From sequence record KX009778: 64,000 bases of DNA; one strand, 5' to 3'. The notes beneath the pieces are model-generated. The model worked only from the letters and a program-made list of their open reading frames with translations, ran no database searches and had not been told where the DNA came from. The DNA comes from Escherichia phage UFV-AREG1. Shown here piece after piece: positions 39,866 through 44,804 of the stretch (position 1 is its first letter; the number at the start of each line of letters is the position of its first letter). Both the position numbers and the translations under genes were made by a program.

Positions 39866-41044
39866 TTAAAAATATTTTTTAAAACTCATCATAACTTTAT
39901 CATCAACATCATTATCAATCTGTGCAACAAGGTAAGATGACAGTTCTACTTCTTGCGGCGCGGATTGAACATTATCAGAATTAAGATATTCACGAATCCA
40001 AGGATATGGGTGTTTAACCGGAGCATCGGTAATTGGGCATGGAAGACCACACTGTTTCATACGAGATACAGTTAAGTAATCAATAAAGCTCCACATGCTA
40101 TTTGTATTTAATCCAGGAACATCGCCATCTTTAAATAAATGAACTGCCCAATCTTTTTCTTGGCGGTTAACTTCCATGAAAATATCAACTGCTTCTTGTT
40201 CACACTCTTGAGCAATTTTAACCCATTCATCGCCGTCAGTGCCAAGTTGAAGTTGACGAATAATATATTGGGTGCCTTTAAGGTGAAGCTGCTCATCACG
40301 TGCAATGAACTTCATAATCTTGGCATTACCTTCCATAATTTCCATGTTCTTATGGAAGTTAAAGGTACATGCGAAAGATACATAAAAACGAATAGCTTCC
40401 AATGCGTTGATTACATGCAAACAGAGGTAAAGAGATTTCATTAGCTCACGCTTCCAATATGTCTCATGCTCAATAGCATCTTCAATAACGTCTTCGTCTG
40501 CATTAATTTCTTTTTGGTATTCGATATCAGCTTTAGCGTTTTCCCAATAACGAGTTTTAATCAGAACATCATCATAATAACGTCCAATTGATTCAGCACG
40601 TTTCATAATAGCTTCATCTAATACAATCTCATCAAACACCTTCGATGGATCAGTATAAAGATTTCGCATGATATGTGTATATGAACGGCTGTGAATAGTT
40701 TCACTAAAAGTCCACGTAGCAACCCATGTATCAAGGCTTGGGTCTGAAATTAATGACATAAGTACAGCAGATGGCGCGCGACCCTGAATGCTATCCAAAA
40801 GTGATTGATACTTCAGGTTATTAGTAAAAATATTCTGCTGATACTGAGGAAGTTTATTAAATTGCGCAGCATCCATCATCAAGTTTACTTCTTCAGGACG
40901 CCAGAAAAATGATAATTGCTTTTCAGTCAAATCTTCAAAAACTTTATGGCGTTGAATATCATAACGCGCAATACCAAGACCTGAACCGAAGAACATAGGT
41001 TCTTTTAAAACATCAACTGGATTTGTATTAAAAACTGTGCTCAT
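39866..41044 (-). CDS. nrdB: Ribonucleotide reductase small subunit NrdB (intron-less)
   Basis: 392 aa continuous ORF with no intron interruption. Confidence 0.93.
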   Translation of the reverse strand: MSTVFNTNPVDVLKEPMFFGSGLGIARYDIQRHKVFEDLTEKQLSFFWRPEEVNLMMDAAQFNKLPQYQQNIFTNNLKYQSLLDSIQGRAPSAVLMSLISDPSLDTWVATWTFSETIHSRSYTHIMRNLYTDPSKVFDEIVLDEAIMKRAESIGRYYDDVLIKTRYWENAKADIEYQKEINADEDVIEDAIEHETYWKRELMKSLYLCLHVINALEAIRFYVSFACTFNFHKNMEIMEGNAKIMKFIARDEQLHLKGTQYIIRQLQLGTDGDEWVKIAQECEQEAVDIFMEVNRQEKDWAVHLFKDGDVPGLNTNSMWSFIDYLTVSRMKQCGLPCPITDAPVKHPYPWIREYLNSDNVQSAPQEVELSSYLVAQIDNDVDDKVMMSFKKYF

Positions 41045-41095
41045 AAATTTTCCACTTAGTTAATAGATAGTGACTCGTCCATGAGTCAAATTATA

Positions 41096-42085
41096 TCATA
41101 ATTTACAGGATGAACAATCTTCAGCTTTTGGAGTTTCTATTTCATAATCATCAGTACCAGAACCATCGCGGGTATTATGATAATAGAAATTTTTTCCACC
41201 AAAATACCAAAAATACAAAAGGTCATCAATCATTATTGACATTGGAACCTTTCCTTTTGGAAAAATCTGCGGGTCATAGTATGTATTCGCCGAAGCTGAT
41301 TGACATACCCATTTCAGCATAATAGCTACCTGCGTGAGATAAGGTTTATTACCTTTCTTAGCTAATTTCCATGTATAATCATAGAGGTCTATGTTATGCT
41401 CAATATTGGGCACGACTTGATTAAAGGAGCCCTCTTTTGATTCTTTAACAGAGACTGGTCCACGTGGAGGCTCGATACCGTTTGTACTGTTAGAAACTTG
41501 GGAAGATGACTCACATGGCATAAGTGCTGATAATGTGCTATTACGGATGCCAAAGAGCTTAAGGTCTTCCCGCAGCGACGACCAGTCACAAACGTATTTT
41601 GGAGCTGCGATTTGGTCAATCTTTTTATTGTACCAGTCGATAGGTAATTCGCCTCGAGACCAACGAGTGTCTGAATAATATTCGCAAGGTCCTTTTTCTT
41701 TGGCGAGCTTAATGGATGCTTTAATGAGTCCATACTGTAATCTCTCAAATAGTTCATGTGTTAAATCGTTAGCATCTTCATAAGAAGCAAAGTTACTTGC
41801 CAGCCAAGCTGCATAGTTGGTAACACCTACACCGAGGTTACGACGCTTTTTAGCTTTTTCTGCTTCAGGAACTGGATATCCTTGGTAATCCAACAGATTA
41901 TCAAGAGCACGAACTTGAACTTCTGCCAATTCATTAATTTTATCTTGGTCTTGCCAGTCAAAATTATCCAGTACGAATGCAGAGAGAGTACAAAGGCCCA
42001 CTTCACCTTTGTTTTCAATAACTTGTATTGTTGTATACTCATCATCTTCGTAAAATTCATCTACAAATTCATAATCAATATTCAT
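41096..42085 (-). CDS. nrdA: Ribonucleotide reductase large subunit NrdA, C-terminal fragment
   Basis: 329 aa; own ATG embedded in the last codons of the HNH gene; 29 aa N-terminal extension then the GLCTLSAF… region and the NrdA C-terminus (…CSSCKL). Confidence 0.8.
   Translation of the reverse strand: MNIDYEFVDEFYEDDEYTTIQVIENKGEVGLCTLSAFVLDNFDWQDQDKINELAEVQVRALDNLLDYQGYPVPEAEKAKKRRNLGVGVTNYAAWLASNFASYEDANDLTHELFERLQYGLIKASIKLAKEKGPCEYYSDTRWSRGELPIDWYNKKIDQIAAPKYVCDWSSLREDLKLFGIRNSTLSALMPCESSSQVSNSTNGIEPPRGPVSVKESKEGSFNQVVPNIEHNIDLYDYTWKLAKKGNKPYLTQVAIMLKWVCQSASANTYYDPQIFPKGKVPMSIMIDDLLYFWYFGGKNFYYHNTRDGSGTDDYEIETPKAEDCSSCKL
41880..41992 (-). repeat. Direct repeat B, copy 2 (113 bp, nrdA coding)
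   Basis: Identical to 43007..43119. Confidence 0.9.
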
Positions 42086-42918
42086 TTAATTCTTCTACCT
42101 TTTTTCGAGATATTCCTAGAGCTTTAGATGCTCGATGTATTGATTGATATTCTATACCGTTTATTTTTACAGCAATTAAGTTATGGGGTTTTAATCCCTT
42201 TGGATGAGGTTTACTGACGTATTCTTGATTATCGTTTTCAGAGATGTTATCAAGCTTTCGACACTTAAAGCCTTTATGTTGAGACCTTTTGCCTTTGCAT
42301 ACGGCCGACATTGCCGAAGCATTGAGTGAATGTAGTTCGCAAAATTCTCTTAGGCCTTTATGGATTTCTTCATGACCGTCCGGGAAAGTAAATACCCAAG
42401 TTGTTTGAAGTTTTTCTCTATGCTCGTCAGTTACCGGAATACCTTTGTTCCAAGCTGGTTTGCCTTTATTATTTTCAGATACAGAAATAGCCAATTTTCT
42501 TCTAAGCCACCCATGGCGTTTATTGGTGTTCTTTCGTTCAATATTATCTTCAGAATAAACACACATCATATTAGCGGCAAATACCAATTTATGATTATCT
42601 GGATATATCTTTACTAATAATTGATGAGCTATGTAATGCTCTTCGGGTGTCAAATCTACCAGGTTTTCCTTTGTATCAGAACCACCAATACACAGAGGTA
42701 TAATATGGTGTGATTCGGTATAGCAATCTAATTTTCTGTTCTTAGCTTTAGAAATAAGGTTATTGTAAATTTTAGAATAATCCATAACTTTTCCTCTTGT
42801 TATGGATTATTTATTAACGGACTGTGTACTTTATTTGCTTTGAATTATACCGCCAGGATTAGCTTCATAAAACTTAGCTACATCCGACTTCTTAATTTTG
42901 ATTAAACGGGTTTGTTGG
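41993..42918 (-). mobile_element. HNH homing endonuclease cassette inserted in nrdA, including diverged nrdA-like flanks
   Basis: Unique segment bounded by repeat copies A2 and B2; holds the HNH ORF, its RBS and diverged flanking nrdA-like codons. Confidence 0.75.
42075..42785 (-). CDS. Free-standing HNH homing endonuclease (Mob-like), paralog of the uvsW-adjacent HNH
   Basis: 236 aa; HNH motif ESHHIIPLCIGG…NLVDLTPEEHYIAH; RBS agagga upstream; C-terminal DNA-binding-like region. Confidence 0.85.
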   Translation of the reverse strand: MDYSKIYNNLISKAKNRKLDCYTESHHIIPLCIGGSDTKENLVDLTPEEHYIAHQLLVKIYPDNHKLVFAANMMCVYSEDNIERKNTNKRHGWLRRKLAISVSENNKGKPAWNKGIPVTDEHREKLQTTWVFTFPDGHEEIHKGLREFCELHSLNASAMSAVCKGKRSQHKGFKCRKLDNISENDNQEYVSKPHPKGLKPHNLIAVKINGIEYQSIHRASKALGISRKKVEELNEY

Positions 42919-43005
42919 CTATTCACATCATTTGTTGGAATAGCAATTTCACAGCACAAGTTACTCTGACGAATAGGTGCCTTTTCACGAATAAACGGAG
43001 TATAG
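42919..43005 (-). repeat. Direct repeat A, copy 2 (87 bp, nrdA active-site region coding)
   Basis: Identical to 43142..43228; abuts repeat B copy 1 with 1 nt between. Confidence 0.9.
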
Positions 43006-44487
43006 ACCTTGGTAATCCAACAGATTATCAAGAGCACGAACTTGAACTTCTGCCAATTCATTAATTTTATCTTGGTCTTGCCAGTCAAAATTATCCAGTA
43101 CGAATGCAGAGAGAGTACACAATCCAATTTCAGCATCAGGACTATTCACATCATTTGTTGGAATAGCAATTTCACAGCACAAGTTACTCTGACGAATAGG
43201 TGCCTTTTCACGAATAAACGGAGTATAGTTATTCGTATTATCAATGAACTGCACATAAATCCTTGCTGTTCCTGAGCGTTCAGTCATGAGCAATTCAAAT
43301 AGTTCACGGGCTTTAATACGCTTTTTACGAATATTAGGGTCTTTTTCTGCTGCTTCGTATAATTCACGGAAACGGTCTTGGTCTTTAAAATAAGAATAAT
43401 AAAGCTCGCCACCCATTTCATGTGGACTGAACAAAGTAATATAATCGTTCTTTCCGAATCGTTCCATCATCAAATCATTCAGTTGAACACCATAATCCAT
43501 ATGACGAATGCGGTTTTCTTCTACGCCTTTGTTATTTTTCAAAACGAGAAGATTTTCAACTTCCAAATGCCAAATAGGATAATAAGCAGTAGCAGCGCCG
43601 CCACGAATTCCACCCTGTGAACATGATTTAACTGCAGTCTGAAAATGTTTCCAAAAAGGAATAACACCAGTATGACGTACTTCACCCATGCCAATTTTAG
43701 AACCTTCAGCACGAATCATACCAACATTAATACCAATTCCAGCGCGTTTAGAGATATATTCAACAATTGAAGCGGAAGCCTTATTGATAGACTTCAATGA
43801 ATCTCCTGCCTCAATAACGACGCATGAACTAAACTGCCGAGTTGGAGTACGACAGCCAGCCATAATAGGAGTTGGTAATGAAATCTGTCGAGTAGATACC
43901 GCTTCATAAAAACGAATAACGTGTTTTAATCTATCAACAGGTTCATCTTGATGCAATGCCATTCCAATAGTCATAAATGCAAACTGTGGAGTTTCATAAA
44001 TTTGACCAGTGGTTTTATCTTTAACGAGATATTTTTCTTTTAATTGCATCGCCCCGGAATAAGTAAATTCCATATCCCGCTCGTGCTTAATTTTTGATTC
44101 TAAAAATGTAATTTCTTCTGCTGAATATTTTGACAGCAGTTCAGGGTCATATTTACCTTCATTTACACAGTAAGAAATATGGTCAATAAATGAACGTGGT
44201 TCATATTGTCCGTAAACATGCTTACGAAGAGCAAACATTAAACAGCGTGCAGCTACATATTGATAATCAGGTTCTTCAACCGAAATAGAATTCGCAGCGG
44301 CCTTAATGACAATAGTCTGAATATCATCAGTGGTCATTCCATCACGGAGATATGATTTAATATTTTCATATAATTCATAAGGATCTACAGATGTTCCTTC
44401 AGCTGCCCAAGATAAAACTTTAATAATTTTTTGTGGGTCAAAGCTCTGAGAAACACCACTACTTTTGATAACATTAATTAATTGCAT
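42985..44487 (-). CDS. nrdA: Ribonucleotide reductase large subunit NrdA, N-terminal fragment
   Basis: 500 aa; contains active-site SNLCCEI and continues through repeat B copy 1, then frameshifts into repeat A copy 2 and stops (…DYQGLYSVYS*). Confidence 0.8.
   Translation of the reverse strand: MQLINVIKSSGVSQSFDPQKIIKVLSWAAEGTSVDPYELYENIKSYLRDGMTTDDIQTIVIKAAANSISVEEPDYQYVAARCLMFALRKHVYGQYEPRSFIDHISYCVNEGKYDPELLSKYSAEEITFLESKIKHERDMEFTYSGAMQLKEKYLVKDKTTGQIYETPQFAFMTIGMALHQDEPVDRLKHVIRFYEAVSTRQISLPTPIMAGCRTPTRQFSSCVVIEAGDSLKSINKASASIVEYISKRAGIGINVGMIRAEGSKIGMGEVRHTGVIPFWKHFQTAVKSCSQGGIRGGAATAYYPIWHLEVENLLVLKNNKGVEENRIRHMDYGVQLNDLMMERFGKNDYITLFSPHEMGGELYYSYFKDQDRFRELYEAAEKDPNIRKKRIKARELFELLMTERSGTARIYVQFIDNTNNYTPFIREKAPIRQSNLCCEIAIPTNDVNSPDAEIGLCTLSAFVLDNFDWQDQDKINELAEVQVRALDNLLDYQGLYSVYS
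43007..43119 (-). repeat. Direct repeat B, copy 1 (113 bp)
   Basis: Identical to 41880..41992. Confidence 0.9.
43142..43228 (-). repeat. Direct repeat A, copy 1 (87 bp)
   Basis: Identical to 42919..43005. Confidence 0.9.
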
Positions 44488-44804
44488 AAGTCCTCAACTT
44501 GAAAATCGTCTTTAAACAATCGGTTAACTATATGAGCTATTATATCACCATGACACGGCTTTGGTTTACATGTGCATCCTAGCCTCATTCCACGTAAAGG
44601 CTCTAAATGTGCTTTAGTTATTTCTCCGGATTTAATTCGACGTATAAAATCTTTTTTGAATAATTCAATGGCAGCCTCCCGGCTGCCAGCATCTTTACCG
44701 ACGTAATTTCCCCAAAATGTACCACGGTGAATATTAACATCAAAGTCGGATTTATATTTATTCACTACCTGGCATAGACGGCCCGCGCGGTGATAATTCG
44801 TCAT
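44478..44804 (-). CDS. Hypothetical Cys-motif protein (nrdA.1 position)
   Basis: 108 aa; [11 protein letters not shown] motif. Confidence 0.7.

Follow-up and report, generated by a model that had tools for sequence, protein, structure and literature searches.

In the 64,000-nt stretch of Escherichia phage UFV-AREG1 (sequence record KX009778) analysed here, hereafter the window, the ribonucleotide reductase (RNR) gene nrdA is interrupted by a 926-nt cassette at positions 41993–42918 of the minus strand. As a whole, the cassette is best explained as a free-standing HNH homing endonuclease element of the MobE family, inserted in nrdA in the same arrangement as mobE of Aeromonas phage Aeh1; we put this explanation at about 80%. 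Cassettes of this type are known from Aeh1, and public genomes already contain them too, with little discussion so far. The new features are a tandem pair of an empty and a filled insertion site, and a possible origin of the peptides flanking the endonuclease from a native NrdA loop. All positions are window positions of KX009778, and every gene of the region is encoded on the minus strand.

Organization of the cassette

The region studied is the td–nrdA–nrdB–denA–rnlA block, all of it on the minus strand. The window belongs to Tequatrovirus, a group of T4-like coliphages, and its closest deposited relatives are only 95–97% identical over 20-kb stretches. The insertion site occurs twice. One copy is uninterrupted (repeat A1, segment x, repeat B1), and the other carries the cassette between repeats A2 and B2. 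The cassette is exactly the unique DNA that separates B2 from A2, and it stands in for 22 nt of nrdA. The main features are as follows.

41096–42085, minus strand: nrdA downstream fragment (C-fragment) open reading frame (ORF), 329 amino acids (aa), start codon ATG at 42083–42085, covering RNR barrel positions 219–523.
41999–42085, minus strand: head MNIDYEFVDEFYEDDEYTTIQVIENKGEV, the acidic N-terminus of the downstream fragment, isoelectric point (pI) 4.05, homolog of the Aeh1 NrdA-b tail.
42075–42785, minus strand: predicted HNH homing endonuclease gene of the MobE family, 236 aa, AUG at 42783–42785 and stop codon TGA at 42075–42077.
42831–42918, minus strand: tail QQTRLIKIKKSDVAKFYEANPGGIIQSK (codons 42834–42917) with its TAA stop (42831–42833), pI 10.0, homolog of the Aeh1 NrdA-a tail.
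42985–44487, minus strand: nrdA upstream fragment ORF, 500 aa, with the ATP-cone, the all-alpha domain and barrel positions 1–268; it spans A1-x-B1 and ends in LYSVYS*.

The cassette consists, in this order, of the basic 28-codon tail with its stop codon, a 45-nt spacer, the HNH gene, and the acidic 29-residue head. It supplies a stop codon and a basic 28-aa extension to the upstream NrdA fragment, and a start codon and an acidic 26–29-aa extension to the downstream one. The insertion point was located by DNA alignment with the intact nrdA of RB14 and with REP2, by translations, and by the Pfam barrel coordinates. It lies between the segments coding for NLCxEI (Cys439/Glu441) and LCTLSA (Cys462; E. 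coli numbering).

The downstream product begins with the head and continues with GLCTLSAF, and its catalytic cysteine is residue 32. The 3' end of the HNH gene and the start of the C-fragment overlap by 11 nt (...AATGAATATTGA...). The ATG at 42083–42085 thus lies inside ORF 42075–42785, where an earlier reading of this DNA, made from the letters alone (the sequence-only reading), had placed it in the last HNH codons. Translation likewise bore out the proposal that A2 runs in frame into the 28-codon tail and its stop. No gene separates the C-fragment from nrdB in the window.

Similarity to the split nrdA of phage Aeh1

The insertion of mobE in nrdA of Aeh1, resulting in a genes-in-pieces RNR, was reportedly described by Friedrich et al. 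(PNAS, 2007). In this phage mobE splits nrdA into nrdA-a and nrdA-b between the equivalents of Cys439 and Cys462, and the RNR is made from genes in pieces (Crona et al. 2011 NAR, PMC3045599). The split adds a basic C-terminal tail (pI 10.4) and an acidic N-terminal tail (pI 3.8) to the fragments, and these tails are essential, their deletion costing about 2000-fold in activity (PMC3045599).

The HNH protein of the window is 48% identical to Aeh1 MobE across its full length (236 aligned residues, with the C-terminal DNA-binding part among them). For other phage Mob proteins, the match covers just the N-terminal 40–60% of it, or extends over the full length at 33–35%. In Pfam, the I-HmuI NUMOD-like domain is found at 32.2 bits, above the cut-off of 27. 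The HNH model itself scores 17.9 bits, under its cut-off of 21.4, and catalysis is predicted only; the HH...N...H residues are invariant in the alignment with Aeh1 MobE.

The similarity extends to both flanking peptides. The tail aligns with the Aeh1 tail through L.K.KKS.V.KF (local score 43), and the head aligns with the Aeh1 head through YED.EYTT (local score 64); neither score was reached in any of 5000 shuffles. The charge polarity of the tails is common to both systems (pI 10.0/4.05 here versus 10.4/3.8; PMC3045599). The position of the catalytic cysteine in the downstream fragment is nearly the same (Cys-32 here, Cys-31 in Aeh1), the annotated mobE and nrdA-B genes of Aeh1 overlap likewise, by 14 nt against 11 nt in the window, and a hairpin that would block the endonuclease translation start is common to both. 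Differences are also seen. The hosts of the cassette belong to different lineages (a Tequatrovirus coliphage here, a Cinqassovirus in the case of Aeh1), the tail sequences have diverged, the window hairpin buries the AUG with the Shine-Dalgarno element in its loop while the Aeh1 hairpin buries the Shine-Dalgarno element, and only in the window is the tail detached from the upstream fragment by a 223-nt duplication.

By analogy with the Aeh1 experiments, the oppositely charged tails would act as an assembly module through which the fragments rebuild the active (aa/ab)2 large subunit. On the same analogy, co-infection would allow the endonuclease to spread the complete unit, via break repair, to nrdA alleles that lack the cassette.

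Two elements of T4 offer partial parallels. The mobA cassette in topoisomerase gene 39/60 is likewise a Mob-family HNH gene in the catalytic region of an essential-pathway enzyme, and its insertion adds charged C- and N-terminal extensions that travel with the element (PMC3045599, discussion; bioRxiv 10.1101/2022.08.31.505936). It differs from the cassette described here in the target gene and in the sequences of the extensions, which are unrelated, and the nrdA cassette is without the translational bypass element that gene 60 has. The T4 MobE relative belongs to the same endonuclease family, lies in the same operon and depends on upstream transcription for its expression. However, it is intergenic, splits no gene, and matches only residues 1–141 of the query, at 41%.

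RNR genes often host inteins and introns. A split intein in degenerate form, or an endonuclease encoded in an intron, would fit this habit, and a degenerate intein was raised as an alternative for Aeh1 by Crona et al. (PMC3045599). We regard this origin as highly improbable for the window. Pfam shows only RNR domains in both fragments and no Hint or intein domain, the tail closes with a stop codon while the head opens with its own ATG, and inspection of the sequences shows no Cys/Ser or His-Asn splice motif at either boundary. An Rfam search of 40900–44700 gave no match at E <= 1, to a group I intron or to any other family. Both the intein and the group I intron readings were therefore rejected, and with neither an intron RNA nor an intein domain the element is left as a free-standing homing endonuclease gene of the Aeh1 mobE-split type.

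Distribution of the cassette in other phages

The same cassette was found in at least 27 other deposited Tequatrovirus genomes, where the whole nrdA region is 93–98% identical to that of the window. The carriers include REP2/REP3, PEC04, HY01, e11/2 (= vB_EcoM_112), fPS-2, fPS-90, PTE-Eco15 and FL33; the e11/2 record already calls the gene MobE. Most carriers are exactly 223 nt shorter than the window. They contain A and B only once each, in the order N-A-tail-HNH-head-B-C, and their upstream fragment of 477 aa carries the tail in frame. The exceptions, IME537 and 236Ecol005PP, are longer from extra insertions. In the split-nrdA region of these two phages (vB_EcoM_IME537 and 236Ecol005PP), one insertion is annotated as a second homing endonuclease, and the other as a Dam methylase with a mobile endonuclease.

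The cassette is 98–100% identical to those of REP2 and HY01, with identical tail, spacer hairpin, head and insertion point. Across carriers the tail is identical at 87–88 of its 88 nt, and the 45-nt spacer is kept at 44/45 nt in four other phages. The HNH gene embedded in nrdA of coliphages exists as two alleles of about 89% nucleotide identity, with the tail and the spacer near-invariant in both. Such a combination points to mosaic exchange inside the cassette. That at least 27 Tequatrovirus genomes, otherwise different from one another, carry the cassette fits with mobility of the element.

Outside these genomes, a MobE alignment search of IMG/VR for further split-type cassettes found only Aeh1 itself split. 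In four environmental viral contigs of IMG/VR, a MobE relative lies directly downstream of an intact nrdA, in a T4-like intergenic position. A 2022 preprint states that "Aeh1 and several others" have insertions of this kind, in which the N- and C-terminal extensions are conserved; the observation is cited there as unpublished (bioRxiv 10.1101/2022.08.31.505936).

Traces of a diverged donor

The tail, the endonuclease and the head form one homologous block in Tequatrovirus and in the distant Aeh1, which suggests that the cassette arrived pre-split. Comparison of the sequences supports the view that it was already a split-nrdA unit in a diverged donor. The sequence-only reading had proposed such an origin, and three observations uphold it: the homology of the unit with Aeh1, the number of Tequatrovirus carriers, and foreign nrdA codons at the end of the head. 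There the cassette reads GEVGL (GGT GAA GTG GGC CTT), in place of the resident AEIGL (GCT GAA ATT GGA TTG). In the C-fragment, alignment with the Pfam RNR barrel model begins at residue 24, and that with generic NrdA proteins at residues 22–26. Judged by these alignments, the last ~6 residues of the head are unambiguously genuine nrdA sequence, with codons that differ from those of the resident allele.

The same reading had described the head as resembling segment x and both flanks as nrdA-like. The resemblance to x holds for the last few residues only and fails for the remainder of the head. As for the wider nrdA likeness, it applies to the last ~6 head residues; the tail and the first ~20 residues of the head do not match canonical NrdA, and show only a moderate likeness, in the same register, to a loop of Acinetobacter phage NrdA (see below).

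In FL33 and PTE-Eco15, 10 synonymous differences are clustered in the first 39 nt of B, just after the head. A co-converted donor flank was considered for them and rejected, as the same allele is present in the cassette-free Tequatrovirus N2.

Expression of the endonuclease and of the downstream fragment

Three elements that may govern translation were identified in and around the HNH gene.

42776–42811, minus strand: predicted 13-bp RNA hairpin (-13.8 kcal/mol), with GAGG in the loop and the HNH AUG (42783–42785) in the 3' arm.
42808–42815, minus strand: AATAAATA, a late-promoter-like motif read from the sequence, with one mismatch to the T4 late-promoter consensus, overlapping the 5' arm of the hairpin.
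42098–42101, minus strand: AAGG, a Shine-Dalgarno-like element 12 nt upstream of the C-fragment ATG, within the HNH coding region.

The predicted fold of the HNH hairpin has a z-score of -3.3 and was matched by none of 200 shuffles, and no pairing is predicted for the RNA surrounding the AUG of the C-fragment (z +0.33). A hairpin is also visible at the equivalent place in Aeh1, where the downstream-fragment ATG is preceded by AGGAG at 11 nt, to be compared with AAGG at 12 nt in the window. A hairpin gate of this kind has been described for I-TevI and other T4 endonucleases as well as for Aeh1 mobE, and the homing endonucleases of T-even phages are held at low levels and expressed late (PMC2988022). 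A scan for sigma-70 promoters and terminators gave counts no higher than in shuffled sequence.

These elements suggest the following model. On early and middle read-through transcripts, the hairpin burying the HNH AUG would block translation of the endonuclease. A late transcript starting just downstream of AATAAATA would be unable to form the hairpin. The downstream fragment would initiate by itself, at the unstructured AUG preceded by AAGG. The embedded ATG is very probably the true start of the C-fragment: the N-terminal peptide MIEHERIYEVYE of Aeh1 NrdA-b was detected by mass spectrometry (PMC3045599), which means that the overlapped ATG is used in Aeh1. For Aeh1, independent translation of the two fragments under repression of MobE has moreover been reported (PMC3045599, Fig. 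5 legend).

The sequence-only reading had assigned expression of the C-fragment to coupling with HNH translation. In such a scheme, ribosomes finishing the HNH ORF at the TGA would step back by 8 nt and start again at the embedded ATG, and this would be the main source of the C-fragment. The position of the ATG in the last HNH codons, with an overlap type kept in Aeh1, suits the scheme, as does the distance between AAGG and the ATG, which is beyond the optimal one; coupling has also been discussed for other overlaps of T4 homing endonuclease genes (PMC2988022). However, the HNH AUG is sequestered in the predicted hairpin, endonucleases of this kind are low and late, and the AUG region of the C-fragment is unstructured. 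RNR is needed early and with its fragments in roughly equal amounts, and if its synthesis were coupled to a repressed ORF, the C-fragment would be in short supply for the enzyme. Obligatory coupling is unlikely because an early, stoichiometric enzyme subunit would then depend on a repressed late gene, and as the main source of the C-fragment we consider it quite improbable. The independent translation reported for Aeh1 likewise speaks against it. If initiation is independent, the 11-nt overlap would reflect compaction and not obligatory coupling. The case for independent initiation has its own weak points, since at a spacing of 12 nt from AAGG it may be weak, and some coupling late in infection is conceivable.

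A loop of Acinetobacter phage NrdA and a possible origin of the tails

The tail and head residues 1–20 have no match in canonical NrdA. An exhaustive phmmer search with the head plus B against 1.84 billion representatives returned only one near-identical fragment covering head residues 1–20. Crona et al. likewise found no database matches for the Aeh1 tails (PMC3045599). Word-indexed protein searches with the fused tail and head, with the head alignment, and with the Acinetobacter loop described below gave few matches, mostly short NrdA fragments, and no informative intermediates.

A tblastn search with a fused A-tail-head-B query matched T4-like phages of Acinetobacter, which have an intact 803-aa NrdA with a continuous insertion at the same loop. 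The insertion is intact in 66 Acinetobacter phage records, is 61–63 aa long, and is 49–100% identical to the loop of phage Stupor. The carriers belong to Lazarusvirus, Zedzedvirus, Hadassahvirus and Acajnonavirus, and include phage 133. Every Acinetobacter T4-like phage examined has the loop between the NLCxEI and LCTLSA motifs (2501–2746 of the Stupor locus).

The loop resembles the joined tails in several respects. The tail and the head together have 59 aa in the window and 60 aa in Aeh1, close to the length of the loop. The loop has the same basic-then-acidic polarity as the tails (pI 9.4 and 4.05). Loop and tail can be aligned in register (RLAVAKGDIIKFIE against RLIKIKKSDVAKFYE) and share the motif K-x-D-[IV]-x-K-F-x-E. 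In an anchored global alignment of tail plus head with six loops, the z-score was 4.1 for the window and 5.0 for Aeh1, and none of 3000 within-half shuffles reached the observed value. Most of this signal is carried by the tail half (z about 4.3).

Other comparisons weigh against a common origin. The likeness of the head half to the loop is weak (z 1.5 and 2.7), local pairwise scores of the tails against the loop are marginal, and a small hidden Markov model of six Acinetobacter loops scored the fused tails no higher than shuffles. As the model and the local scores were unconvincing, the positive signal comes from the anchored global alignment only. On these alignments, we give about an even chance that the tails are the two halves of a ~60-aa NrdA loop that is still uninterrupted in Acinetobacter T4-like phages. 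The likeness itself could have arisen in three ways: MobE may have entered a native loop whose halves it now carries, loss of an endonuclease gene may have fused the two parts, or the sequences may have converged.

A different history was proposed by Crona et al. for Aeh1. The tail and the head would have been foreign or de novo peptides, captured with mobE and selected later for opposite charge, and the likeness to the loop would then be convergent or due to chance. We consider this history a serious contender, if somewhat short of an even bet. It accords with the failure of canonical NrdA to match head residues 1–20 among the 1.84 billion representatives, with the lack of database matches for the 2010–11 authors (PMC3045599), with the low G+C content of the DNA coding for the head (25% versus about 36–39% in the flanks), and with the non-significant model test and the weakness of the head half. 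It does not readily account for the identical insertion point in NrdA, the similar total length (59–60 versus 61 aa) and the shared polarity. Nor does it explain the registration of the tail half with the loop, which no within-half shuffle reproduced for either the window or Aeh1, or the nrdA-derived final ~6 residues of the head.

A duplication that keeps the empty site beside the filled one

A direct duplication at 43006–43228, consisting of A1-x-B1 and one untemplated base, keeps an empty insertion site beside the cassette-bearing copy. Its parts and their counterparts around the cassette are listed below.

43142–43228, minus strand: repeat A1, 87 nt, coding for YTPFIREKAPIRQSNLCCEIAIPTNDVNS, 100% identical to A2.
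43120–43141, minus strand: segment x, 22 nt, with codons for ..PDAEIGL; nrdA sequence without interruption, in whose place the second copy has the cassette.
43007–43119, minus strand: repeat B1, 113 nt, coding for CTLSAFVLDNFDW...LLDYQG, 100% identical to B2.
43006, minus strand: single base at the junction of B1 with A2, a T in the gene sense, templated by neither flank.
42919–43005, minus strand: repeat A2, 87 nt, in frame with the tail and out of frame with the upstream fragment.
41880–41992, minus strand: repeat B2, 113 nt, part of the downstream fragment.

The repeats bounding the segment that the sequence-only reading had picked out proved exact, the 87-nt A and the 113-nt B pairs each being 100% identical. 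Its notion of an intact resident gene did not hold. No such gene exists in the window, A1-x-B1 being a 223-nt partial duplication. The uninterrupted copy reads ...NDVNSPDAEI-GLCTLSAF, and at the junction (…GATTACCAAGG-T-CTATACTCC…) the upstream ORF runs on to stop six codons past B1 (…DYQG-LYSVYS*).

The duplicated unit of 223 nt is not a multiple of 3, and A2 with the tail is therefore in a different frame from the upstream fragment. This frame has no credible start codon, and A2 and the tail are left untranslated by the duplication. In-frame fusion of the tail to the upstream NrdA fragment, found in REP2, e11/2, PTE-Eco15 and FL33, is absent from the window. About 50 positions of the RNR barrel (219–268 of the Pfam model) are encoded on both fragments. 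With these positions duplicated and the tail orphaned, the split RNR of UFV-AREG1 is probably impaired.

The junction B1-T-A2 was found nowhere else among phage records, IMG/VR, E. coli genomes, GTDB genomes and JGI metagenomes, and the 500-aa upstream product had no match in an exact-protein look-up. With no second junction in these collections, recurrence of the duplication could not be shown. It could have arisen by aberrant break repair in the course of homing or by unequal crossover, or it could be a chimera. A split gene of the REP2 type would result from recombination between A1 and A2, and an intact nrdA from recombination between B1 and B2.

The known rearrangements of T4 include tandem duplications, and in the laboratory nrdA can be dispensed with; both facts make a real duplication easier to accept. 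The tandem could instead be a sequencing artefact, produced from phages with and without the cassette that were sequenced together; the true genome would in that case be REP2-like or intact in nrdA. The absence of the junction and of the 500-aa product from all collections searched is in line with an artefact, as are the lack of any mismatch between A1 and A2 or B1 and B2, and the recombinational instability expected of such a tandem, which moreover probably impairs RNR. An artefact would, however, require a novel join with an untemplated base and unequal repeat arms (87 versus 113 nt), neither of which a k-mer graph bubble should give, and the remainder of the window is clean, with ORFs of 1290 aa and 1101 aa intact. 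On balance we find an artefact unlikely, if by no means negligible.

Implications for split RNR genes of T4-like phages

Taken together, we tentatively suggest that MobE once invaded a self-associating ~60-aa surface loop of NrdA and now exports the halves of this loop, as a module that confers tolerance to splitting, to nrdA genes that lack the loop. The window would in addition preserve the aberrant product of a homing or repair event, with the empty and the filled site in tandem. This combined scenario is possible rather than probable. Two further considerations tell against our explanation of the element: the endonuclease activity, its target, the RNR activity and the translation starts of UFV-AREG1 are all inferred, and with the tail detached, assembly of the Aeh1 type cannot work here as in REP2-type genomes.

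The textbook example of a homing endonuclease that disrupts an active site and also provides the peptides for its reassembly is the split RNR of Aeh1. That the tail-endonuclease-head unit recurs as one homologous block in two T4-like lineages so far apart lends sequence-based support to the idea of an "antidote" moving together with its element. The duplication, if real, is a natural construct with an empty and a filled site in cis, usable for questions about the cut site and about repair of the T4 type. The link to the Acinetobacter loop, if true, would answer where the tails came from, and would suggest a general route by which selfish elements may split essential genes without cost.

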